The notes below the pieces were generated by a model, which saw only the letters and a program-made list of their open reading frames with translations, ran no database searches and was not told the origin of the DNA. The position numbers and the translations under genes were made by a program. From a virus (lineage: Duplodnaviria > Heunggongvirae > Uroviricota > Caudoviricetes), in the IMG/VR virus record IMGVR_UViG_2585427787_000004, positions 1-11,928 of that record: DNA of 11,928 bases; one strand, written 5' to 3'. Positions 2,588 through 11,928 of this stretch are shown here, in pieces; the first letter of the stretch is position 1, and the number at the start of each line of letters is the position of its first letter.

Positions 2588-2627
2588 TAAAAACCCCGGA
2601 CTGTTCCCCCAGCCGGGGTTTTGTTTT
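2588..2627. terminator. Bidirectional rho-independent terminator hairpin (CCCCGG-A-CTG / CAG-CCGGGG) flanked by A-run and T-run
   Basis: Stem-loop read from sequence 2594-2618 with TTTTGTTTT on the plus side and AAACTAAAAA before it (U-tract for the minus strand). Located immediately 3' of the endolysin stop. Confidence 0.6.
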
Positions 2628-2629
2628 AC

Positions 2630-3007
2630 TTATCGCTTCAGCTGAAAGTGAGGTCCGTCTTTCAGCGTTTTCCAGTCCCCGCCCCATTCGATAGCGATCC
2701 CCAGCTCTGCGGCAGCCTGCTTAAATGCCTGTGCGATTTTCTCGTACAGAGGCCACTCCCATGACACCTGGCTGCCGATGTAGGCCACAACATCCACCGC
2801 ATCACCGGTCAGGTGGCGGCTGTTCATGGTCTGGCTTTTCCCTTCCGCAACCAGCTGTTTCTGGCGATACTTACTGCGCAGGCCTTCCGTAATACCGAAA
2901 TCAACCTCCGTCAGCTCCAGCGCACGGCGAACTACAGCAACCAGCTGTGGTTTGACACCCTCCAGATTTTTTTCACTGCGACGGCTGAATCTGAATTTAC
3001 CCGGCAT
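2630..3007 (-). CDS. Endolysin, peptidase M15 family (zinc D-Ala-D-Ala carboxypeptidase / L-alanyl-D-glutamate peptidase-like)
   Basis: Translation shows the M15 zinc-ligand pattern: SRHLTGDAVDV (H-x6-D) and C-terminal DGPHFQL histidine. The ORF track begins at a GTG (3013); I prefer the ATG at 3007, which has a GAGGTG Shine-Dalgarno about 5 nt upstream and sits 2 nt after the TGA of the preceding gene. Confidence 0.8.
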   Translation of the reverse strand: MPGKFRFSRRSEKNLEGVKPQLVAVVRRALELTEVDFGITEGLRSKYRQKQLVAEGKSQTMNSRHLTGDAVDVVAYIGSQVSWEWPLYEKIAQAFKQAAAELGIAIEWGGDWKTLKDGPHFQLKR

Positions 3008-3009
3008 AT

Positions 3010-3285
3010 TCACCTCAACAATGGAAAGATTTTTGTGACGTTCCCGCGTGCGTGTATCACCAGCACGCAGAACAGCAGGTTAAAAAACACTTCCAGCCAG
3101 CCCGTTGCTAACGGGCGACCACACAGATAGCTGAGGGGCGCAAAGGCATACAGCAGCATCAGCAGCCAGGCCAGCCATGACACCAGCGGTTTATGTCTGG
3201 AATCACGGCGACGATAAAAAAAGAGCGTCAGCACGATAACCGTGCATAACGCCACATTCAGCAATCCGGGAAGGTTACTTAACAT
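3010..3285 (-). CDS. Lysis-cassette membrane protein (91 aa, 2-3 predicted TM helices); possible second holin or antiholin
   Basis: Hydrophobic translation (LLNVALCTVIVLTLFFY...WLAWLLMLLYAFAPL...FFNLLFCVLVIH); ATG at 3285; tightly packed between the putative holin and the endolysin. Confidence 0.5.
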   Translation of the reverse strand: MLSNLPGLLNVALCTVIVLTLFFYRRRDSRHKPLVSWLAWLLMLLYAFAPLSYLCGRPLATGWLEVFFNLLFCVLVIHARGNVTKIFPLLR

Positions 3286-3667
3286 TGCCGCCTACTCCAC
3301 CCCGCAGGCGGGAGAACACACCGGACACCAGCGATGCAATATCCTGCTGGTGGATGAACGAGAGAATCTTCACCGACACCACCGAGACCAGCACCGCGCA
3401 AAGCGCATCTGCTGATGTACCGTCATACCCTGTTTTTGATGCAATCCAGGCTGACAGCACACGCGCTCCCAGCACGCCGACAATAAACGACACCAGAAAA
3501 TGCGCCACCACGCGCCAGACTGAAAGTGACTGCGGCATCGTTGCCACAAATAACGCCCCGGCGAACGCGCCAAACACAATCCCGAAATCCATCCCGGTAA
3601 ACAGCCCGAATACCGTCGCGCCACCCAGCGCCGCAGCCGTGCCGGAACCGGATAAGGGTTCAGACAT
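3275..3667 (-). CDS. Putative holin (130 aa, three hydrophobic segments)
   Basis: ORF-track frame 3275..3718 trimmed to the ATG at 3667, which is preceded by a strong AGGAGG Shine-Dalgarno (rev. comp. of 3671-3676). Three hydrophobic helices and a charged C-terminus; first gene of the lysis cluster upstream of the endolysin. Confidence 0.55.
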   Translation of the reverse strand: MSEPLSGSGTAAALGGATVFGLFTGMDFGIVFGAFAGALFVATMPQSLSVWRVVAHFLVSFIVGVLGARVLSAWIASKTGYDGTSADALCAVLVSVVSVKILSFIHQQDIASLVSGVFSRLRGGVGGNVK

Positions 3668-3755
3668 ACTTCCTCCTGAAAATAAAAAAAGGGCCACCAG
3701 CGACCCGTAAAAAAACACCCCGTCAAAGGCACCCGCAGATGCCTTTTGTGTGATG

Positions 3756-3908
3756 TTATTCAGATTTACGCAGTAAAGGCCGGAGCACGATCAGCGCCAT
3801 CGCCACCAGCACACCATCTGCCAGCACTGACATCAGTCGTCCGGTGAAATCCACCATCACTACCAGAAACAACAGGATGACAGCCAGCACAAGGCGCGCA
3901 CTTTTCAC
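3756..3908 (-). CDS. Possible 50-aa hydrophobic peptide (GTG start) just upstream of the holin; very tentative
   Basis: Hand-translated minus-strand frame: (GTG) KSARLVLAVILLFLVVMVDFTGRLMSVLADGVLVAMALIVLRPLLRKSE, GGAG about 8 nt upstream of the GTG. Below the ORF-track cutoff; no homology recognised. Confidence 0.2.
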   Translation of the reverse strand: MKSARLVLAVILLFLVVMVDFTGRLMSVLADGVLVAMALIVLRPLLRKSE

Positions 3909-4111
3909 AGGTACTGCTCCAGCGGCAACTGCAGCGCCTGCGCAATTTTCTTCAGTTGCGCTTCTTCTTCCTGACCGATACCGTCCTGGTCAGCGATATC
4001 CAGACACAGACACAGCACATTCACAGTATCATCAGTATCTGCAACATCAGTCAGCTGACGAAGGGCTTCAGCATTAGCAGAACGCGGTGGCGCTTCATAA
4101 CGGGCGCGGAT

Positions 4112-4137
4112 ATGAAAAAGGCCCGCCGAAGCGAGCC
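4112..4137 (-). terminator. Candidate rho-independent terminator after the tRNA cluster (GGCUCGC-UUCG-GCGGGCC followed by U-run on the minus strand)
   Basis: Hairpin read from plus 4120-4137 with A-run at 4115-4119 (U-tract on the minus transcript). Confidence 0.45.
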
Positions 4138-4151
4138 TGGAAAAATAAGCG

Positions 4152-4228
4152 TGGCGCGTTGTACTGGATTCGAACCAGTGACCGATTGCTTAGAAGGCAA
4201 TTGCTCTGTCCGGCTGAGCTAACAACGC
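4152..4228 (-). tRNA. tRNA-Arg (anticodon UCU), phage-encoded
   Basis: Reverse complement folds as a cloverleaf: acceptor GCGTTGT/ACAACGC, D-arm GCTC...GAGC, anticodon stem ATTGC/GCAAT with loop CTTCTAA (anticodon TCT), T-arm ACTGG-TTCGAAT-CCAGT, discriminator G, encoded CCA. Confidence 0.85.
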
Positions 4229-4241
4229 AGGGTACAGATAA

Positions 4242-4318
4242 TGGACCGCCATCGAGGACTCGAACCCCGCGCAACCAGCTTCGAAGGCTGGCGCTCTATC
4301 CTGATGAGCTAATGGCGG
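4242..4318 (-). tRNA. tRNA-Arg (anticodon UCG), phage-encoded
   Basis: Reverse complement: acceptor CCGCCAT/ATGGCGG (perfect 7 bp), D-arm GCTC...GAGC, anticodon stem CCAGC/GCTGG with loop CTTCGAA (anticodon TCG), T-loop TTCGAGT, encoded CCA. Confidence 0.8.
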
Positions 4319-4325
4319 TATGTGA

Positions 4326-4401
4326 TGGTGGCCCTTGCTGGATTTGAACCAGCGACCTGGCGATTATGAGTCGCTCGCTCTCACCACTGAGCTAAAGGGC
4401 C
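4326..4401 (-). tRNA. tRNA-Ile2-like (anticodon CAU; sequence resembles the E. coli lysidine-modified AUA-reading tRNA rather than tRNA-Met)
   Basis: Reverse complement GGCCCTTTAGCTCAGTGGTGAGAGCGAGCGACTCATAATCGCCAGGTCGCTGGTTCAAATCCAGCAAGGGCCACCA closely resembles, as I recall it, the chromosomal tRNA-Ile2 (ileX/ileY); anticodon loop CTCATAA. Confidence 0.8.
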
Positions 4402-4450
4402 GGGAGCAGAATAATAATGGTGCGTAATTAATTCTGCAATCTCATCCGTT

Positions 4451-5500
4451 TCAAACGATTAAATCCTGAACTTCCCTGACTGTCTGTTCAAAACGTCCGG
4501 TCTCCAGCTCAACACCAATCGCACAACGCCCCAGTGCCATCGCCGCTTTTACCGTTGAACCTGAACCCATAAAAAAATCTGCAACCAGGTCTCCCGGACG
4601 ACTGCTCGCGTTGATTATCTGCTGCAGCATTTCTGCCGGTTTTTCGCACGGATGTTTCCCTGGATAGTACTGCACCGGTTTATGCGTCCAGACATCGGTG
4701 TACGGAACCTGCGCCGTCACACCGAAATACCGCCGCAAATTTTTATATTCACTCAGCAGTTCCGTATACTGCCGGTTCAGCTCACTGTATGTGCTGACCA
4801 GCTGGTGGTGTGGCTTTTCCAGTTCCCCGCGCTGATGTTTTTCTGCCGCAACACGCGCAAACAACGCCTGCAATTTATTGTAATCACCCTCGTTCGGTAA
4901 CTGCCACTGACTGGCACCAAACCAGTGCGAAGCCATGTTTTTCTTTCCGGTGGCTTCCGCTATCTGTTTTGACGTTATTCCCAGTGATTTACGCGCATCA
5001 CGAAAGTAAGAAATCAGCGGGGCCATGACGTGCTGTTTTAGCTCGCGCCCCTGCTCCACATAGCCATCATCTTTCGGGCGATACGGTCCCTGATAATGTT
5101 CTGCAAACAGAATGCGCTCTGTTGCCGGAAAATACGCCCGCAGACTTTCCTTATTGCACCCGTTCCAGCGTCCGGACGGCTTCGCCCAGATAATGTGGTT
5201 CAGCACATTAAAGCGCTCACGCATCATGATTTCGGTGTCAGATGCCAGGCGATGACCACAGAACAGGTAAAGACTTCCGGCAGGCTTCAGTACCCGCCAG
5301 AACTGCGCCAGACACTGGTCCAGCCATTTCAGGTAATCATCGTCGCCCTCCCACTGGTTATCCCAGCCCTCGGGCTTCACTTTAAAGTATGGCGGGTCTG
5401 TGACTATCAGATCGACAGAGTTTTCCGGTAAGGTCTGGATAAACTCCAGGCAATCAGCGTTGATTAACTCACAACTGGATATTTTTACAGTATTAATCAT
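4451..5500 (-). CDS. DNA methyltransferase, beta-class amino-methyltransferase (probably N6-adenine); no adjacent restriction endonuclease seen
   Basis: 349-aa ORF. N-terminal catalytic motif IV DPPY (LIVTDPPYF) and C-terminal AdoMet motif I FxGxG (DFFMGSGSTVKAAMALGRCAIGVE); the IV-then-I order defines the beta class. Confidence 0.85.
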   Translation of the reverse strand: MINTVKISSCELINADCLEFIQTLPENSVDLIVTDPPYFKVKPEGWDNQWEGDDDYLKWLDQCLAQFWRVLKPAGSLYLFCGHRLASDTEIMMRERFNVLNHIIWAKPSGRWNGCNKESLRAYFPATERILFAEHYQGPYRPKDDGYVEQGRELKQHVMAPLISYFRDARKSLGITSKQIAEATGKKNMASHWFGASQWQLPNEGDYNKLQALFARVAAEKHQRGELEKPHHQLVSTYSELNRQYTELLSEYKNLRRYFGVTAQVPYTDVWTHKPVQYYPGKHPCEKPAEMLQQIINASSRPGDLVADFFMGSGSTVKAAMALGRCAIGVELETGRFEQTVREVQDLIV

Positions 5501-5650
5501 AGATCAATAAGCACTTCTCTGATAGGCTCATACCGCTTTTGCGCAAAGCAGATGGGCCTGAGGTTTGCTTGTGACCCCAACGCATGAGCAGATGGCTGGC
5601 AGGTGCCGCTAACACCCACCAGCCGCCCATTACCACAAATTAAAAAGCCT

Positions 5651-5848
5651 TCACTGCGGAAGGCGTCTGTAACAACCGAACTGATAATCTGCCAGACCCG
5701 CCATAACAAGCTGAGTCAGTATTAACTGGCAGCGTTCGCGTGAAAGGTAAGTATTCTGCGCAATTTCCCCGACGGTCGCCGGTTCGGTGATGCTTAATTC
5801 ATTAAACACCACTCTGGCGGTTTCGGTCATATCCTGCTGTTTTAGCAT
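5651..5848 (-). CDS. Small protein (65 aa) with helix-turn-helix-like segment; hypothetical
   Basis: ORF-track frame 5651..5971 begins at a GTG lying inside the terminator hairpin; trimmed to the first ATG at 5848 (alternative ATG at 5830). Translation MLKQQDMTETARVVFNELSITEPATVGEIAQNTYLSRERCQLILTQLVMAGLADYQFGCYRRLPQ. Confidence 0.4.
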   Translation of the reverse strand: MLKQQDMTETARVVFNELSITEPATVGEIAQNTYLSRERCQLILTQLVMAGLADYQFGCYRRLPQ

Positions 5849-5971
5849 GCCTTTTTCCCTTTTCCGGTTAACGTGACATACCAATACCTCTTGTCGAAAA
5901 AGCCAGCAAGCTGAAAGACCGGCATTCGCAACCACCAGCGCATTTAACGTCCTGTACCGCTTTTCGGGCAC

Positions 5972-5995
5972 AAAAAAACCCGCATAAAGCGGGTT
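5972..5995 (-). terminator. Rho-independent terminator immediately downstream of the Q-type gene (candidate tR')
   Basis: Stem AACCCGC-ATAAA-GCGGGTT (5977-5995) with A7 run on the plus strand at 5972-5978, i.e. a U-tract after the hairpin on the minus transcript. Confidence 0.6.
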
Positions 5996-6054
5996 CTTTC
6001 AGGTGTCCATGTCTGCTATTCGCCTCGCGGTATAGCTTTGCGAAGCGTAGCTGG

Positions 6055-6083
6055 ATTGAAACAGTTTATGCGTAAAAAATCAA
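6055..6083 (-). promoter_or_regulatory. Candidate late promoter (pR'-like): -35 TTGATT, 17-nt spacer containing TG, -10 TTCAAT on the minus strand
   Basis: Hexamers read from the reverse complement of 6055-6083; the position between the Q-type gene stop and the terminator matches the lambdoid pR'/qut-tR' arrangement. Hexamer match is weak, so this is positional inference. Confidence 0.3.
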
Positions 6084-6634
6084 GACATTTTTTGAGCAAA
6101 CGATTCTCGCATAGGGATGTATAGCGCATATTCAGCAACAGCTAACCAATTAGCAATTCGCTTTTCGCATGTACTAAAACACCATTCCGGGTGCACCTCA
6201 TTCAACAATTCAGCCATTTTGCGTTTACTCATCCCCCGCCCTTCGTACCTTTGCCGCAGGATATCAATCAATCCAGGATAACGTGCAAGCGCTTTACTTA
6301 TCACCCCATCAATGCGTAACGCCTCTGCATCAGTACAGTGAGACAACCAGCTCTTCTGTCTGCCAGCGATCATCTCTCGCAAGAATGCTTCCAGCTCTGG
6401 TTTATCAATCCCTGACTCCCTGATTCTACGCAGGGCTTCATTGATTGCGGTTTTTGTCAGTTTTTTGGATGCCAGCAACTGATTGAACATATTTCCTGGT
6501 TTGCCACCACCTATATACGACCAACGCCCCCACATCCGTAATTTCCCCTGGATCCAGACGGCTTCCAGCGTTTTTAGACGTAAATGCTCGCCGCTTTTGC
6601 CTGTAATTTCCGGGTATATCATATTTACGATCAC
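6080..6634 (-). CDS. Putative late-gene antiterminator Q (Q-family protein)
   Basis: 184-aa ORF (GTG at 6634; first ATG at 6622). Contains an LRMWGRWSYIGGG segment resembling the WGAW segment I recall from phage 21/933W-type Q proteins, and sits in the canonical Q position: after rusA, before a promoter-terminator pair and the lysis genes. Confidence 0.6.
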   Translation of the reverse strand: MIVNMIYPEITGKSGEHLRLKTLEAVWIQGKLRMWGRWSYIGGGKPGNMFNQLLASKKLTKTAINEALRRIRESGIDKPELEAFLREMIAGRQKSWLSHCTDAEALRIDGVISKALARYPGLIDILRQRYEGRGMSKRKMAELLNEVHPEWCFSTCEKRIANWLAVAEYALYIPMRESFAQKMS

Positions 6635-6996
6635 TCACTCTCAATTTTGTAAATCTTCACGCCCAGCCGCCCCCCAGGAACGCGCTGACCGCGCACAATA
6701 TTGATTTCATCAAACTGCTCGTCGTCTATGAGAAGTCCGGCATGCGTCAGCGCATCCAGTGGTGCTTTCAGGATATTGTCCAGGTCACGACGACGTTTAT
6801 CCGGTGGCTCTGCAATAATCTTTATCGCCAGCCTTCCGGACAGGTTTAATTTCAGCCGCTGCTGGCGAACAATAAGCGCCACATCACGGCGATAACGCTC
6901 ACCGGCTTTTGATACAAAATATGTGCTGCCACGACGTCGCCAGTAAGTGTTCACCGTTGGCGGGTAAGGCAAAACAAATTCTATGCGTTCAGTCAT
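6631..6996 (-). CDS. rusA: Holliday junction resolvase RusA
   Basis: 121-aa translation with the RusA catalytic signature (PPDKRRRDLDNILKAPLDAL) and N-terminal LPYPPTVNTYW motif; size and motifs match E. coli RusA. Start ATG abuts the upstream stop (TGAATG). Confidence 0.9.
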   Translation of the reverse strand: MTERIEFVLPYPPTVNTYWRRRGSTYFVSKAGERYRRDVALIVRQQRLKLNLSGRLAIKIIAEPPDKRRRDLDNILKAPLDALTHAGLLIDDEQFDEINIVRGQRVPGGRLGVKIYKIESE

Positions 6997-8052
6997 TCAT
7001 GCTTTCCACTTCAGGACACCCGAATTTCTCGCGTGCATTAAAAAACGAATCAGCAACAACAGCTGGCTGCCGTGTTTTTCTTCAAAATCTTTTACCCCGG
7101 CGTGTAGTTCGCTATGGCATTTACGGCACAGCGGAATAACAAACAAATCATCAGCCTTTGTTCCCATCCCTCCCAGTCCATGACCAATGATGTGATGCGG
7201 ATCATCTGCCTGATTACCACACGTCATGCATTTCTGCGTTTTTACCCAACGCGTGTATACAGGCATCTCTTCCCGTCGTGGTTTCTGGCGCTGGAGATAC
7301 TGAGCCGGTGACTCCGGATCAACGGCAATGCTTACCACCGTCTTTTCCTGTGGCGGGTTTTGCTGGTGGGCGTGAGGCAGTAGCGCAATATTTTTTGTGC
7401 GCTGCTTCAGCATGCTGGTGGCGGTCTGCTCTCCCGGCACGATGTCGCTCTCGCGGTATACTGAGCGAATTTTTTCCGCGCGTAATCCCAGTGAACGACG
7501 TAACACCGTCTCCGGTAGTGCGTCCGCTACGTTATTTATGGTTGCCCACCAGGATAATTCAGCCAGCGATAATTCCCGCTCCTGCGTGCCATTCATTGCG
7601 TGGCGGATGACATCAATCATCCATGCTGACAGGTTTTGGTGAGCAAGCTGCCCGAGTGATTCGGAAGTCTGGTTACGCAGCTGGTTGTCGCAGTGCCAGC
7701 ACAACACCATCGCGCCGGTACCGTAACGATGTATGACGGTTTCACTGTGATGGTAGTCACCATGAGGCCACTGGCAGGATTTAACGTGGCGTAACAGCCA
7801 GTCAGACAATGCACCAGCACCACCAGCAGCACGAATCACCCGCTCATCGCTGAAAAATGGCAGTAATGATTTATCCTCCGCCAGCGGCTGGCGAACAGCA
7901 GGAACGACTCCGGACGGCAGACCGCGCATGCTTTTCGGTTCCGGCTCCACCAGAACTCGAGGGTTATGAAATACCTGCATGGATTCACGGCCCGGTTTTA
8001 GCACCACCAGCCCAAGTTCCGGTACCGGAACAGGTCGAAGTAATACCCGCAC
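6997..8052 (-). CDS. Phage DUF968-like protein (YdfU-like) with C-terminal Cys/His HNH-type zinc-finger motif
   Basis: C-terminal CMTCGNQADDPHHIIGHGLGG...CRKCHSELH motif. The ORF track starts at ATG 8124, which would overlap the upstream gene by about 70 nt; I prefer the in-frame GTG at 8052, preceded by GGAGG with 4-nt spacing and lying 1 nt after the upstream TAA. Confidence 0.65.
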   Translation of the reverse strand: MRVLLRPVPVPELGLVVLKPGRESMQVFHNPRVLVEPEPKSMRGLPSGVVPAVRQPLAEDKSLLPFFSDERVIRAAGGAGALSDWLLRHVKSCQWPHGDYHHSETVIHRYGTGAMVLCWHCDNQLRNQTSESLGQLAHQNLSAWMIDVIRHAMNGTQERELSLAELSWWATINNVADALPETVLRRSLGLRAEKIRSVYRESDIVPGEQTATSMLKQRTKNIALLPHAHQQNPPQEKTVVSIAVDPESPAQYLQRQKPRREEMPVYTRWVKTQKCMTCGNQADDPHHIIGHGLGGMGTKADDLFVIPLCRKCHSELHAGVKDFEEKHGSQLLLLIRFLMHARNSGVLKWKA

Positions 8053-8053
8053 G

Positions 8054-8326
8054 TTACCTCCAGATGCGTTGCTGGAATGTGCGGGACGGACGCGGTGGGC
8101 GTTCGGAATAAGGGAGCCTGACATAGATTATCCAGTGACGATAATCGAGGCTGAGGGCTTTCTTAATCTCGTATCCGCGTCTGCGGTAGTTATGAATTAG
8201 CCATTCGGCCTGTTCTTCAGTACATGGTGGGTGTTGGTACCAGTCGGTTTTAAATGCGTGTGAACGCCGCCCATGCCGGATGGCAAGGGCGGTATCAGAA
8301 TTGTGAAATTTGGTTTTGTGCGCCAT
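8054..8326 (-). CDS. Small basic hypothetical protein (90 aa); occupies the slot between the hok gene and the DUF968 gene
   Basis: ORF-track frame 8054..8485 reads through the terminator hairpin at 8408-8425 (the segment NPLRRVLFFP is the hairpin translated); trimmed to the first ATG downstream of the terminator at 8326. Translation MAHKTKFHNSDTALAIRHGRRSHAFKTDWYQHPPCTEEQAEWLIHNYRRRGYEIKK... Confidence 0.45.
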   Translation of the reverse strand: MAHKTKFHNSDTALAIRHGRRSHAFKTDWYQHPPCTEEQAEWLIHNYRRRGYEIKKALSLDYRHWIIYVRLPYSERPPRPSRTFQQRIWR

Positions 8327-8398
8327 CGGTTGTCTCTGCTGGCGCAGCAGGTGCCAGTTGTTCAGGCTGGCGTGCGAATTGTAAACCAGAATGCCAGG

Positions 8399-8425
8399 AA
8401 AAAACAAAACCCGCCGAAGCGGGTT
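8399..8425 (-). terminator. Rho-independent terminator downstream of hok
   Basis: Stem AACCCGC-CGAA-GCGGGTT (8408-8425), same stem sequence as the terminator at 5977-5995, preceded on the plus strand by AAAAAACAAAA (U-tract on the minus transcript). Confidence 0.6.
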
Positions 8426-8493
8426 AAGTGCGGGTGCGTTGAGGATGCCTGACTCATCAGAGGTGGCGAGGGATTTCTCCCTCACCTGGTCTC

Positions 8494-8649
8494 TTACTCC
8501 TCAGGTTCGTAAGCTGTGAAGACAGCGACCTCCGTCTGGCCGGTTCGGATTCGTACCTCGCAGAGGTCTTTCCTCGTTACCAGTGCCGTCACTATGACGG
8601 TTAAACAGATGACGATCAGGGCGATTAACATCGCCTTTTGCTGCTTCAT
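8494..8649 (-). CDS. hokD: Hok/Gef-family type I toxin (51 aa)
   Basis: Translation MKQQKAMLIALIVICLTVIVTALVTRKDLCEVRIRTGQTEVAVFTAYEPEE matches, as far as I can recall, E. coli HokD (RelF); typical Hok TM helix plus the conserved Cys/Tyr periplasmic tail. ATG at 8649 preceded by AAGGAG. An in-frame upstream ATG at 8706 gives a 70-aa extension (possible mok-like reading frame). Confidence 0.85.
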   Translation of the reverse strand: MKQQKAMLIALIVICLTVIVTALVTRKDLCEVRIRTGQTEVAVFTAYEPEE

Positions 8650-9050
8650 AGCCTGCTTCTCCTTGCCTTTCGGCACGTAAGAGGCTAACCTAGATTTGCC
8701 GTTCATAGATTGAGCCTCAGATTAATGTTAAACGTCTTGCAGGACGCGTAACGTTAACTGGGGCTTTTCTCTATCTGCCTTTTGGTGGCATGCCTGAGAC
8801 AGATAACCTCAAGCACCCGCAGTAATTTTACATAAAGGTTATGGTTCCTTTCAATAACTCAACAATTTCCCATCTAAATACTACTCATATAGTCATATAG
8901 GCTGGCGATAATTTAAAGATAAGACTCTCTCTTTTTCTCCACCACATAATGCATTACCAACGCAAAAGTTACCATGGTAATTATATCTTAACGAAAAATA
9001 CCCCGCGAACATATTCTACTCAACAAAAAATTTTGCGTACGCATTATTCT

Positions 9051-9079
9051 TTGTAGTATCTTAAGTATGTAATTATTTT
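9051..9079 (+). promoter_or_regulatory. Candidate sigma-70 promoter for the two-gene cassette (-35 TTGTAG, 17-nt spacer, -10 TATTTT)
   Basis: Hexamers read from sequence about 20-45 nt upstream of the ORF A ATG in an AT-rich leader; match is modest. Confidence 0.3.
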
Positions 9080-9097
9080 TTACAGGAAATTTTTGCA

Positions 9098-10012
9098 ATG
9101 GCTAGCAAGCGCTTTTTCTTCGATTTTTATCAATGTCACACTATAAGCACTGATACAAATGCAGGAGTTAATTCACCTGAAGCTGTTTTTTCAAAAATTT
9201 TTGAGTCATACAGCGAAGGCCGAGACAAAACTGTACGTAAAATAGGAAATAAACTAGTTGAAATGCGCTTCATGGAAAGAACCGACTATGGTTTCAGGGG
9301 AGTTATAGGAAAACACAGAACCAATAATCTCCCTCATGTTGCTGTAGCCGGAGGTGAAGAAAGAGAAATTAAACTTGAAATCAATGAAAACTTATTAGAA
9401 AAAGCTTATTTTCATTTTTATACCCAAGACTCAGTTTTAATAATTCAACGAAACAGACTCTGTTATGGCTGGTTGCTATTAAGTAAATATCTTTCCAACA
9501 GTTCACAAAATACAACTGTTAATCCCATCATTCAGACCAGTAGTTTAAAGTGGTTGATGCGTAATGAAGTTCGAATCAAAACTCTAGAAATCGGTATCGC
9601 TCGGCCAAAGAATGTGCAACTATATGAGGATGTTGAACATAACTTCAACAATGCATTGATAGCCACTCTAAATGGTACTAATTCTGCCAAAGTAAATCTT
9701 ACATTACGTGGGGATAGTCGTTCTGAAGATCCTGAATCTCGCTATCTAGGTTCTCAACTAAAAAGAGCCTTTAAAGAAACACTAGAGACTTTTGAGGTTG
9801 AAAAACTTAAACTAGAAACCCAAGACATTGAGACCGGTGTACAGCATCCTATCGATCTTGTAGCAGACAAATTAGTCTACTACACAGATGTTGAACTTGG
9901 AGGTAGGTATCCATTAGTTGGCAGCATTTGGAGCGCCTTAACTCTTGCAAAAGATAGTAAAGATGATGAATTGAAGGCATACTTTGGAGTAGCCAATCAA
10001 AGAGTTGATTAA
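9098..10012 (+). CDS. Hypothetical soluble protein, 304 aa (ORF A of the AT-rich cassette); no family recognised
   Basis: Long ORF with AT-rich codon usage, ATG at 9098 with a weak purine-rich stretch upstream. No Walker, HxH or other catalytic motif that I can assign with confidence. Followed 15 nt later by ORF B. Confidence 0.7.
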   Translation: MASKRFFFDFYQCHTISTDTNAGVNSPEAVFSKIFESYSEGRDKTVRKIGNKLVEMRFMERTDYGFRGVIGKHRTNNLPHVAVAGGEEREIKLEINENLLEKAYFHFYTQDSVLIIQRNRLCYGWLLLSKYLSNSSQNTTVNPIIQTSSLKWLMRNEVRIKTLEIGIARPKNVQLYEDVEHNFNNALIATLNGTNSAKVNLTLRGDSRSEDPESRYLGSQLKRAFKETLETFEVEKLKLETQDIETGVQHPIDLVADKLVYYTDVELGGRYPLVGSIWSALTLAKDSKDDELKAYFGVANQRVD

Positions 10013-10027
10013 TTTTGGAGCGATGGT

Positions 10028-10507
10028 ATGAAAAAGGGGAAATTGATAACTTTGTACAGTTATGGTTATAATTTAGCCTCTGTTGTTTTTTGTATCATCG
10101 CATGGCCTCTTTCTGCAAAGCTAAATTTTGCACAAATTCAGCCAATCGCTTCGGCCGTTTCTACATTTTCTGGGATATTATTTGGCTTTGTTTTAGGTTC
10201 GCTTACCTTGATTGCTTCAGCTAGAGATAATACGCTAATTAGAAATATAGGAAAAACTGGTTATTTGAAAAAACTGACCGAAGAAATGCACTCCACTATG
10301 GGATGGTTACTATCAGTTTGTATTATTTTTATCATTTTATTATTTTTCCCTGATACACTAAAGTTTAAATTCCCACTAGTAAAAGATGCCGACGAGCACA
10401 CATATGCCCAACTATTACTCCAAGTGGGAATTTTTTTCCTGCTTATTACATTTAAAAAATTTTATACTACCTGGTCGCGTCTAAAAGACATAACAAGGCT
10501 CATGTGA
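10028..10507 (+). CDS. Hypothetical small polytopic membrane protein, 159 aa, about four TM helices (ORF B of the cassette)
   Basis: ATG at 10028 preceded by GGAG at about 8 nt. Four hydrophobic segments (LASVVFCIIAWPL; IASAVSTFSGILFGFVLGSLTLIA; MGWLLSVCIIFIILLFF; YAQLLLQVGIFFLLITF) separated by short charged loops. Confidence 0.7.
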   Translation: MKKGKLITLYSYGYNLASVVFCIIAWPLSAKLNFAQIQPIASAVSTFSGILFGFVLGSLTLIASARDNTLIRNIGKTGYLKKLTEEMHSTMGWLLSVCIIFIILLFFPDTLKFKFPLVKDADEHTYAQLLLQVGIFFLLITFKKFYTTWSRLKDITRLM

Positions 10508-10512
10508 TATAT

Positions 10513-11037
10513 CTATAATTGCACATAAAAAGACAATCCTAACAATACTCCCATTGTAAGTTGTATATTCTTTCTTATTGTTCCATCTGAACATTTGTAC
10601 CTTCGTGCTATTGTACGCAAAGATATACCTATAACAAAATGAGCGATAATTAACTCATAGTCATCTATTCTATATTGTTTAAGCTTCAACATGCAGGTAT
10701 CAATCATACGACCTTCATCGTTGCCACACTGACGGCGTAATTTCTTACCATGAGGTACTACATCTTTATATTTATCAGCCACTTGCTGCCAGTTGATAGA
10801 ACTATTTCCAGCTGCAGCCCAAGCCCCCCAACTGTCCAAAATATCATATATATTAGCATTGCTATCCACCTTTTTTTTATATTCTTTTTTGAGGCAACCA
10901 AGAAGCATCCTGGCCATCGTTATTATTTCTATACTTGTAACTGATTCATAAGCATCAGGAGAAATAATCCTCCCATCACTTAATGCCCTTTCACTAAGAT
11001 TTGCTATTTCCAATAATCGTTCTTTAGTTATTTCCAT
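10513..11037 (-). CDS. Q-family antitermination protein paralog (phage 21/933W-Q-like), 174 aa from the ATG
   Basis: Track ORF starts at GTG 11049; the ATG at 11037 has a GGAGA Shine-Dalgarno. The C-terminal 100 aa parallel the 933W/21-type Q as I recall it: LDSWGAWAAAGN vs LERWGAWAANN, CGNDEGRMIDTCMLKLK vs CCDDDAMIICGCMARLK, YKCSDGTIRKNIQ vs HCCSDGYIGKRLQ. AT-rich codon usage. Confidence 0.65.
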   Translation of the reverse strand: MEITKERLLEIANLSERALSDGRIISPDAYESVTSIEIITMARMLLGCLKKEYKKKVDSNANIYDILDSWGAWAAAGNSSINWQQVADKYKDVVPHGKKLRRQCGNDEGRMIDTCMLKLKQYRIDDYELIIAHFVIGISLRTIARRYKCSDGTIRKNIQLTMGVLLGLSFYVQL

Positions 11038-11162
11038 TATTATCTCCACCGCCCTTTCGGGCGGCCTCCTGATGTTCTGAGGGTGCAGAAATCCCTCCGG
11101 TTAAGGATTAAATTTTATTTACAGTGCTGGATTTAATTATTCAGATTTGGATTATGCTTTCT

Positions 11163-11928
11163 GTAAGCGACTCGTCAGAACCGTATTGATATTTACTGAG
11201 AGCTCAGATCAACTTTCCAGGGCAACAGATCGCGTACCCGGTTTGCCGGCCAGTCCTGGATATGTTCAATGACGTAACGCAGCCACTTTTCTGGCTCCAC
11301 ATTGTTCAGACGGCATGTGCCGATCAGCGAGTACAACACCGCCGCATGTTCACCACCGCTGTCGGAACCCGCGAACATCCAGTTTTTCCGGCCTACGGCC
11401 ACTCCCCGTAAGGCGTTCTCTGCGATGTTGTTGTCGATTTCCACCCAGCCATTACTGCAGTACACGTTCAGTGCATCCCACTGTTTCAGCAGGTATGCGA
11501 ACGCTTTTGCCGTATCTGAGTGACGCGACAGTGTTTTCATCTGTTGCTGTATCCAGTCATACAGTGACTGCATCAGTGGCGCGGCTCTGGCTTTTCTTGC
11601 CGCCAGACGCTGTTCTGCTGAACAGCACCGGACCTCTGCCTCGATGGCATACAGTTCACCGATACGCTGCAGGGCTTCCGTGGTGATGTAGGTGGGCGCT
11701 CTTGCATGCACATCGTGGATTTTTCTCCGGGCATGAGCCATACACGCGGCTTCCGTTATTCTGCCGGATTCGTATAACGCCCGGTAACCACCGTAAGCAT
11801 CGGCCTGAAGCACACCGCTGTAACCGGCCAGGTGATTTTGTGGATGGATACCTTTCCGGTCCGGACTGTACGCGAACCAGACCGCCGGGGGCATCTGTGA
11901 ACCGGCGTTACGGTCATCACGGACGTAG
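11163..11928 (-). mobile_element. IS66-family insertion sequence, right-end portion (terminal repeat beginning GTAAGCG at 11163); element continues past the window end
   Basis: IS66-family terminal inverted repeats start with GTAAGCG; this motif sits about 30 bp beyond the stop of the IS66-type transposase ORF, the expected geometry for the tnpC-proximal end. Confidence 0.65.
11193..11928 (-). CDS. IS66-family transposase (TnpC/orf3), C-terminal part; N-terminus lies outside the window
   Basis: Translation has the characteristic IS66 TnpC segments ([56 protein letters not shown]). The frame stays open from the track start (11894) to the window edge. Confidence 0.8.

Follow-up and report, generated by a model that had tools for sequence, protein, structure and literature searches.

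A hokD-type toxin gene and its predicted hok/mok/sok module in the nin region of an Escherichia coli lambdoid prophage

Is the hok gene of this prophage an unguarded toxin, or does it come with the means for its own control? A preliminary description of the window, the whole stretch of 11,928 nucleotides that was analysed, had read the gene as a stand-alone toxin within the span 8426-8760. This span is too narrow, as it omits the hok promoter, the 5' end of the mRNA with its tac element, and the terminator. Taken at its full extent, from ~8854 to 8399, and judged from its sequence, the locus is very probably a complete toxin-antitoxin module of type I, a hok/mok/sok of the hokD/hokW kind, which has its place within the nin region of a lambdoid prophage of E. 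coli. A complete module of this sort is canonical, of a known kind and ubiquitous in E. coli. The features on which this reading rests are the following.

11049-10513, minus strand: Q-like gene, the first in operon order within the window
8825..8854, minus strand: hok promoter, with -35 TTGAAA (8854-8849), an 18-nt spacer and -10 TAAAAT (8830-8825)
8399..8818, minus strand: predicted full-length hok mRNA, ~419 nt; position 1 of the Rfam model aligns at 8818
8807..8818, minus strand: tac (translational activator element), GGGUGCUUGAGG; pairs with fbi in the fold and with ucb in the Rfam consensus (open form)
8760..8766, minus strand: ucb (upstream complementary box, anti-SD), AAGCCCC; partner of SDmok in the closed form as predicted, and of tac in the Rfam consensus
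8681..8718, minus strand: Sok-target hairpin (SDmok/dcb stem), a helix of the Rfam consensus
8718-8715, minus strand: SDmok, GAGG, preceding the mok ATG at 8706
8494..8706, minus strand: mok reading frame from the ORF list, 70 aa, in frame with hok and ending at the same stop codon
8664-8659, minus strand: hok Shine-Dalgarno, AAGGAG, read from the sequence
8494..8649, minus strand: hok toxin coding sequence, 51 aa; PF01848 at 81.6 bits; nucleotides 100% identical to K-12 hokD
8465..8486, minus strand: 3' road-block stem-loop, GGUGAGGGA / GAAA / UCCCUCGCC; 9-bp stem, present in full-length and truncated folds
8432..8444, minus strand: fbi (fold-back inhibitory element), CCUCAACGCACCC; complementary to tac and conserved in 933W and K-12 hokD
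8399..8425, minus strand: intrinsic terminator of the hok transcript from the terminator scan, a stem-loop at 8425-8408 followed by a T-run
8663..8691, plus strand: sok promoter, with -35 TTGCCT (8663-8668), a 17-nt spacer and -10 TAACCT (8686-8691)
8698..8768, plus strand: sok RNA gene, ~71 nt, projected from the 933W sokW annotation; 3' end within 8768-8772

Reading frames, leader and antisense gene

The toxin gene itself is not in doubt. PF01848 (HOK_GEF) matches the hok ORF well above its cut-off of 22 bits, and the Shine-Dalgarno and terminator that had already been assigned to the gene are both there. The terminator consists of a 7-bp stem, AACCCGC/GCGGGTT, with the loop TTCG, and is common to K-12 hokD. 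The HokD peptide, which is identical to Hok here, is listed as toxic when overexpressed; production and toxicity of Hok at this exact locus are predicted.

Does the upstream ATG represent mok? It lies 57 nt upstream of the hok start and in frame with it, and the 70-aa, mok-like product that had been proposed for it is borne out. PHROG 251, 'MokW-like host killing', matches this product (7.7e-33), and the PF01848 match covers Mok residues 25-66, which correspond to the Hok part. Among relatives the ATG never varies, and nearly all of them preserve the 70-aa frame. Phage 933W annotates the same in-frame mokW/hokW architecture with one stop codon, and this ATG is read as a genuine mok start. As expected for the family, mok has its own Shine-Dalgarno and overlaps hok, and translational coupling of the two is predicted.

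A search against Rfam places the region upstream of hok in the RF01794 (sok) family, with a match at 8818-8644 of 108.7 bits against a gathering threshold (GA) of 59 (E = 1.7e-24). The match lies on the hok-sense strand, runs from GGGUGCUUGAGG to the hok start codon and fills every helix of the consensus, namely the stem of tac with ucb, the hairpin in the middle, the target hairpin formed by SDmok/dcb and a small one that precedes the hok Shine-Dalgarno. In practice, the RF01794 model is thus the refolded hok mRNA leader, and Sok is the antisense of its central part. Two matches to isrK in the same database, at 8404-8485 and 5973-6046, score 24 and 21.6 bits against a GA of 50 and were rejected as sub-threshold.

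The hok promoter scores 10/12 against the consensus in a generic sigma-70 scan. Its -10 sits 6 nt before the mRNA 5' end at G8818, a spacing also found in the R1-type locus, and is kept as TAGAAT in relatives, where unrelated upstream flanks still supply a TTG-type -35. The 5' end at G8818 was inferred by alignment to the R1 and 933W leaders, and the 3' end was placed in the T-run after the terminator. Structure prediction for the mRNA so defined, which the preliminary description had suggested, returns a fold of -168.1 kcal/mol, beyond chance (z = -6.9), in which the 5' and 3' ends are closed by tac/fbi pairing in both the MFE and the centroid structure. The tac/fbi helix comprises 12 bp and one bulge. 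Its duplex energy of -27.2 kcal/mol compares with -17.4 ± 2.6 kcal/mol for shuffled 3'UTRs, of which 4/2000 are as good, and its pairs are 98.7% canonical across 90 unique relatives.

Can the leader also adopt the open form? The target hairpin (fold -13.5 kcal/mol) presents in its loop the start of mok together with the sequence complementary to the Sok 5' tail. When the leader is folded by itself, the closed, metastable MFE is -58.3 kcal/mol and the enforced open structure, with tac/ucb and SDmok/dcb paired, reaches -57.7 kcal/mol. Closed and open leaders that are nearly isoenergetic are what a conformational switch requires, and such a switch is predicted to operate in vivo. For the 3'-truncated mRNA, the ViennaRNA MFE has a 5' hairpin of the metastable type with SDmok still paired, and the open form was not obtained. 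Since the enforced open leader is just 0.6 kcal/mol worse, thermodynamic prediction is unable to choose between open and closed.

The perfect hairpin at 8468-8483 that had been noticed behind the stop codon is real and does lie in the 3' regulatory region of the hok mRNA. It is not the fold-back element that it was taken for, which is fbi further downstream (8444-8432); instead, GAGGGA/GAAA/UCCCUC (8483-8468) forms the core of the 9-bp stem at 8486-8465. This stem-loop aligns with the GGCGGGC-GCAG-GCCCGCC hairpin found directly after the stop codon of the R1-type locus. In R1 the stem-loop after the stop codon is a road-block to 3' exonucleases, by whose action the last 39 nt, fbi among them, are lost (PMC1635323; PMC9841398). 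By position, the stem-loop at 8486-8465 would be the homologue of this R1 road-block that halts 3' trimming. Among relatives its pairs are 99% canonical, with one compensatory change from G-C to A-U.

Is there a sok gene? The preliminary description could find neither promoter nor terminator for one, and our own generic sigma-70 and terminator scan, which did find those of hok, likewise returned none on the plus strand. The scan misses sok because its -10 matches only 3/6 consensus bases and the Sok stem has internal loops; the miss is a limit of the scan and not evidence of absence. By Rfam match, alignment to 933W and predicted fold, a sok gene appears on the plus strand at 8698-~8768, with its promoter at 8663-8691 inside the mok/hok-SD region. 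From -35 through -10 this promoter is 100% identical to that of 933W/Sp5, and it aligns with TTGCGC/TATCCT of the R1-type plasmid locus. Six nucleotides separate the -10 from the start at G8698, and all 90 relatives have the same Sok +1/-1 bases (complements of C8698 and A8697). The predicted RNA, which falls inside the RF01794 match, begins with 9 unpaired nt, the 5' tail GCCGUUCAU, continues in a long hairpin (8712-8766) and ends in the U-run tail CUUUUCUCU; its fold of -30.2 kcal/mol is again beyond chance (z = -5.6). The small palindromes that had been described upstream of hok in place of a sok gene are in part real, as TAACGTTA does occur at 8749-8756. It does not stand instead of sok, however, and sits within the Sok hairpin, where it is perfect here through the rare variant G8752, present in 2/88 relatives. 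Promoter, 5' tail, stem-loop and U-run are thus all in place, and transcription of sok is predicted. The preliminary description had itself named a canonical antisense sok with promoter and terminator as the finding that would speak against a stand-alone toxin, and this is the arrangement that we find.

Related loci and genomic context

How does the module compare with characterised systems? From the hok -10 through fbi, it shares 90.9% nucleotide identity with mokW/hokW/sokW of 933W / Sp5 (VT2-Sakai). Both loci have a 70-aa Mok in frame with a 51-aa Hok and an identical sok promoter, and their Sok hairpins differ at 4/62 nt. In contrast, the Sok 5' tail/target loop is GCCGUUCAU here and GUUCAGCAU in 933W, with 6/12 positions mismatched. 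Hok here and HokW of 933W differ in 4 C-terminal residues, and neither the terminator after fbi nor the -35 flank is common to the two loci. Their positions differ as well: here the module has an AT-rich cassette on one side and DUF968/RusA/Q on the other, within the nin region, but in 933W it is near the right end of the genome.

The Sp5 system has been studied experimentally. sokW of Sp5 is an RNA seen on Northern blots, HokW is toxic, and the pair constitutes a toxin-antitoxin system of type I (Takada et al. 2021, PMC8621323) that depends partly on RNase III and Hfq (PMC8621323). When the sokW promoter was removed by changing TAACCTA to GAGCCGG (primers YO-421/422), antitoxin activity was lost, and sokW supplied in trans partially restored it to the promoter-less mutant (PMC8621323). 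TAACCT here is the same element as the one mutated in that published construct. In Sp5, hokW-sokW makes induced cells stop growing and lyse earlier and release ~two-fold more phage (PMC8621323).

The hok/mok/sok (parB) locus of R1 and R1-type IncF plasmids belongs to the same Rfam family, and all named elements align with ours in the same order. These comprise the tac 5' end GGNGCUUGAGG, ucb AGCCCC, SDmok GAGGC, the mok ATG, the sok promoter inside mok (TTGCnn, 17 nt, TAnCCT), the hok Shine-Dalgarno, the road-block hairpin after the stop codon, fbi and the downstream hairpin. Outside these aligned boxes nucleotide similarity is low, and HokW is 44% identical to R1 Hok (PMC8621323). According to our reading of the R1 sequence, mok lies in another frame there, whereas it is in frame with hok here. 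The middle hairpin, which forms the Sok stem, is ~19 nt longer here than in R1, and Sok measures ~71 nt as compared to 64 nt. Finally, the copy described here is prophage-borne, the R1 copy plasmid-borne.

K-12 hokD (relF) of the Qin prophage differs in another way. The two loci have a 100% identical hok coding sequence and agree in the Shine-Dalgarno, the road-block hairpin, fbi and the terminator; downstream, too, they have similar neighbours, with a small ORF, DUF968/YdfU and a Q-like gene. A comparison with this relBE-retaining locus, also suggested in the preliminary description, finds that similarity to K-12 starts only at the hok Shine-Dalgarno. Immediately upstream K-12 has relB-relE, with relE replacing the leader, and lacks the hok promoter, tac, ucb, mok, the sok promoter and sok. 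An assignment of our locus to the orphan of the relBE-hokD operon type was considered and rejected, as the full leader stands here in place of relE. The stated absence of relBE is correct: neither RelB nor RelE is present within 9 kb of the module on either side in the annotated genome colinear with the window. Loci of the hokC(gef)/mokC/sokC type belong to the same family, and a mokC-annotated locus is 75% identical over 83% of the module. The hokC type is more distant in sequence and occupies a chromosomal backbone locus, whereas the module here is prophage cargo.

The window is colinear with E. coli 504838 from 2626 to 11162 at 98.8% identity; beyond this, an IS66-family transposase gene starts. 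It represents a lambdoid prophage whose rightward operon lies on the minus strand. In operon order, the Q-like gene is followed by an AT-rich cassette on the plus strand (GC 34-38%) that encodes a DUF6731 protein and a 159-aa membrane protein, then by hok/sok, a small ORF, DUF968, RusA and a DUF1133 Q-like gene, and further on by a DNA methyltransferase, three tRNAs and the lysis genes (holins and an M15 endolysin), joined in the colinear genome by a terminase small subunit. Between the upstream Q-like gene and hok we find no minus-strand terminator; that read-through from the early operon silences sok on induction is speculation.

For the DUF6731 neighbour, our searches returned no sequence match in the PDB, no PADLOC match and no literature, and a single-sequence AlphaFold model has a pLDDT of 35. 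Its membrane partner has a weak match to RexB (E = 0.0015) that Pfam does not support. A RexAB-like reading of this cassette is offered as a lead.

By megablast, a 501-nt region of the module is 99.8% identical in at least 10 complete E. coli chromosomes; E. coli 504838 and ATCC 43896 are examples of strains that carry the prophage at 99.8% identity. Related copies occur in 4733/5426 E. coli genomes, the number of places in one genome having a median of 2 and a maximum of 10. Where identity is 99.8%, the RefSeq annotation gives 'hokD' only, with neither mok nor sok.

Sequence variation among close relatives

Are the regulatory elements maintained in other copies? Relatives were collected by an exact 27-nt pattern adjoining the variable segment described below, which yielded 108 modules (90 unique); most of them come from prophage contigs in IMG/VR. 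In the 90 unique close relatives, canonical pairs make up 89-99% of every helix. Two double changes are compensatory, with the road-block hairpin and the tac stem contributing one each; the relatives vary too little for a strong covariation test, and these two pairs are consistent with the structure but are not independent proof of it.

The modules are 92-99% pairwise identical except for a 22-nt hot spot (8713-8692), where identity falls to 68.5%, and to 40% in its 5-nt core (8703-8699). Between pairs with different alleles the core is 32% identical, as opposed to 95% for the third codon positions of hok. Within the hot spot fall the loop of the target hairpin with the inner part of its stem, codons 2-5 of mok, the 5' tail of Sok and the discriminator of the sok promoter. 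Little or no change is seen in the ATG of mok, in the +1/-1 bases of Sok, in the -10 or in the 70-aa frame. All 7 common alleles (-12 to -14 kcal/mol) and most of the rare ones retain the fold of the target hairpin.

Could the hot spot determine which Sok acts on which mRNA? At least 7 alleles exist. Cognate tail-target duplexes reach ~-20 kcal/mol as compared to -3 to -14 kcal/mol for non-cognate ones. The allele of the window is both the commonest (24/108) and the most orthogonal, its non-cognate duplexes being -6.1 kcal/mol or weaker. The rest of Sok is ~95% complementary to non-cognate mRNAs. When two copies reside in the same genome, they differ in Sok allele in 3/4 pairs, a frequency to be read against a chance expectation of ~0.86 and a sample of four pairs. 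We tentatively raise the possibility, to which we give rather less than even weight, that a 22-nt specificity cassette has diversified into at least 7 mutually orthogonal alleles, by diversifying selection or cassette exchange, so that the Sok of one prophage cannot neutralise the module of another in the same cell. This allele diversity is the only element of the locus that is new, and mildly so.

Proposed mechanism and competing explanations

How would such a module work? The mechanism of hok/sok is defined from R1 (PMC9841398, PMC1635323), where a stable toxin mRNA contrasts with an unstable Sok, PNPase and RNase II process the mRNA from its 3' end, RNase III cleaves the duplex, and cells die once Sok has decayed (PMC9841398, PMC1635323); for hokW-sokW this is known in part (PMC8621323). 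At our locus, sequence and structure prediction suggest that a weak promoter would give rise to the ~419-nt hok mRNA, with tac paired to fbi and SDmok sequestered by ucb, while a constitutive antisense promoter inside the mok/hok-SD region would produce the ~71-nt Sok. By analogy with the R1 paradigm and hokW-sokW, the full-length mRNA should be inert. Slow 3' exonucleolytic trimming would then remove fbi and stop at the road-block (8486-8465), upon which the trimmed leader would refold into the tac/ucb stem and the SDmok/dcb target hairpin. If Sok behaves as its counterparts in these two systems, its 5' tail would nucleate on the target loop and block translation of mok, hence of the coupled hok, and the Sok/mRNA duplex would be cleaved by RNase III. 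Once sok transcription stops, be it through prophage induction, shut-off of host transcription or loss of the element, the unstable Sok would decay, and the stable truncated mRNA could be translated into the 51-aa Hok, which would depolarise the inner membrane. The most likely payoff, as for Sp5 hokW-sokW, is help with host killing or lysis on induction, stabilisation of the prophage, or both.

Could the gene nevertheless be an orphan that has lost or never had Sok, like K-12 hokD, and that is either silenced or free to act? The bare 'hokD' label of RefSeq at the 99.8%-identical loci and the generic scan with its lack of plus-strand sok signals both invite this view. It is contradicted by the presence of the whole leader at 108.7 bits against the Rfam model, by a sok promoter and Sok body that match the validated sokW, and by the retention of everything upstream of the hok Shine-Dalgarno that K-12 hokD lacks. 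We regard an orphan Hok as already refuted at the level of sequence and give it a very small probability. Inertness is the main functional rival to an active module: an arrangement intact in sequence might be a hitch-hiking prophage relic that mediates no post-segregational killing (PSK) and is not activated by transcription arrest. Sequence integrity is no proof of activity, because the native chromosomal hokA/B/C loci have been reported as unable to mediate PSK and as unresponsive to rifampicin. The modest hok promoter and the ViennaRNA MFE of the truncated mRNA, which holds SDmok sequestered by ucb in the closed form, point in the same direction. Against it, the 91%-identical hokW-sokW is functional and alters growth arrest, survival and phage yield after induction (PMC8621323); moreover, constraint is visible in 90 relatives on the ATG of mok, on the -10 and +1 of sok and on the helices, and unrelated upstream flanks still provide a TTG-type -35. 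On balance we consider an inert module quite unlikely.

A different question is whether a module of this identity serves mainly in abortive-infection defence of the lysogen against superinfecting lytic phages, with shut-off of host transcription depleting Sok and the cell dying in consequence. R1 hok/sok is reported to exclude phage T4 (Pecota and Wood 1996), and our module adjoins the AT-rich, moron-like cassette (GC 34-38%) whose membrane protein resembles RexB weakly. That resemblance is slight (E = 0.0015) and finds no support in Pfam, however, a large survey saw no enrichment of hok beside defence systems, and the sole direct data on a prophage homologue point to lysis and phage release (PMC8621323). 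Defence as the main role is improbable in our estimate, though not negligibly so.

What does a complete hok/mok/sok module at this site mean? What looked like an unguarded toxin would be a textbook self-regulated module, leaving no puzzle over how the cell tolerates it, and the main value of the result is this correction. The RefSeq label 'hokD' without mok and sok invites the misreading of such loci as orphans and hides the fact that it is K-12 hokD which is missing the regulatory leader. If the diversification of the Sok tail is confirmed, its value would be modest: nature would then offer a range of antisense specificities orthogonal to one another, and a starting point for asking how several hok/sok-bearing prophages coexist in one genome.

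Surroundings of the hok/sok module

Two different Q-type antiterminator-like genes are present in one prophage arm, and the hok/sok module, together with an AT-rich cassette, lies between them:

6080-6634, (-), Q-like gene, DUF1133/Phage_antitermQ
10513-11049, (-), Q-like gene, Phage_antitermQ

The AT-rich island adjoins hok/sok at 9098-10507 (+), has a GC content of 34-38%, compared to ~52% elsewhere, and encodes two proteins in the opposite orientation to the phage operon:

within 9098-10507, (+), DUF6731 protein, 304 aa
within 9098-10507, (+), multi-pass membrane protein, 159 aa

Could these two proteins constitute a RexAB-like exclusion pair? This is possible, and the 159-aa membrane protein gives a weak match to RexB in PADLOC (E = 0.0015). 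Pfam, a PDB sequence search and a literature search returned nothing for such a pair, and a single-sequence AlphaFold model (pLDDT 35) was uninformative.

Three tRNA genes are clustered at 4152-4401 (-), between the methyltransferase and lysis genes, and the RefSeq annotation of a colinear genome includes only two of the three:

within 4152-4401, (-), tRNA with anticodon CAT, assigned to Met by ARAGORN and to Ile by RefSeq
within 4152-4401, (-), tRNA with anticodon TCG (Arg)
within 4152-4401, (-), tRNA with anticodon TCT (Arg)

At the right-hand end, the closest genome is colinear with the window up to 11162, but not over 11162-11928. This segment carries part of a gene that probably runs on beyond the window end:

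11193-11894, (-), C-terminal part of an IS66-family transposase

Database annotation of the module

In NZ_CP025856.1, which carries a locus 99.8% identical to the hok/sok module studied here, RefSeq names hokD alone in the region 9232-9608, without mok or sok. A 59-aa 'hypothetical protein' is also annotated at this locus; its coding sequence corresponds to window positions 8273-8452 (+), lies in antisense orientation across the 3'UTR and terminator of hok, and is probably spurious.

The match to the Rfam 'sok' model, RF01794, lies on the hok-sense strand at 8644-8818 (-) and extends from the 5' end of the mRNA to the hok start codon. In effect, RF01794 models the hok leader, with Sok proper antisense to the central part of the model. 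Strand calls derived from RF01794 should be read in this light. Rfam also returned two sub-threshold matches to isrK:

8404-8485, (-), isrK-like, 24 bits against a GA of 50
5973-6046, (-), isrK-like, 21.6 bits against a GA of 50

The former overlaps the hok road-block hairpin, the fold-back element fbi and the terminator. Both score below GA and are probably chance matches.

Sequence features of hok and the Sok target

At 8508-8511 (-), the Tyr47 codon of hok, TAC, is followed by G. The resulting TACG is the kind of motif in which TadA carries out A-to-I editing. The motif is common to this hok and hokW, the homologue of phage 933W/Sp5. According to the introduction of a 2026 preprint, hokD mRNA is edited at the position corresponding to Tyr47, which recodes Tyr to Cys.

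Prophage hok/sok modules (close relatives L004-L123) contain a hypervariable 22-nt cassette at 8692-8713 (both strands), with at least seven common alleles, while the remainder of the module is 92-99% identical. The cassette takes in the 5' tail of Sok, the loop of the target hairpin and codons 2-5 of mok. In pairs with differing alleles, the loop core is 32% identical, whereas third-codon positions of hok are 95% identical. The mok frame and the hairpin fold are kept.
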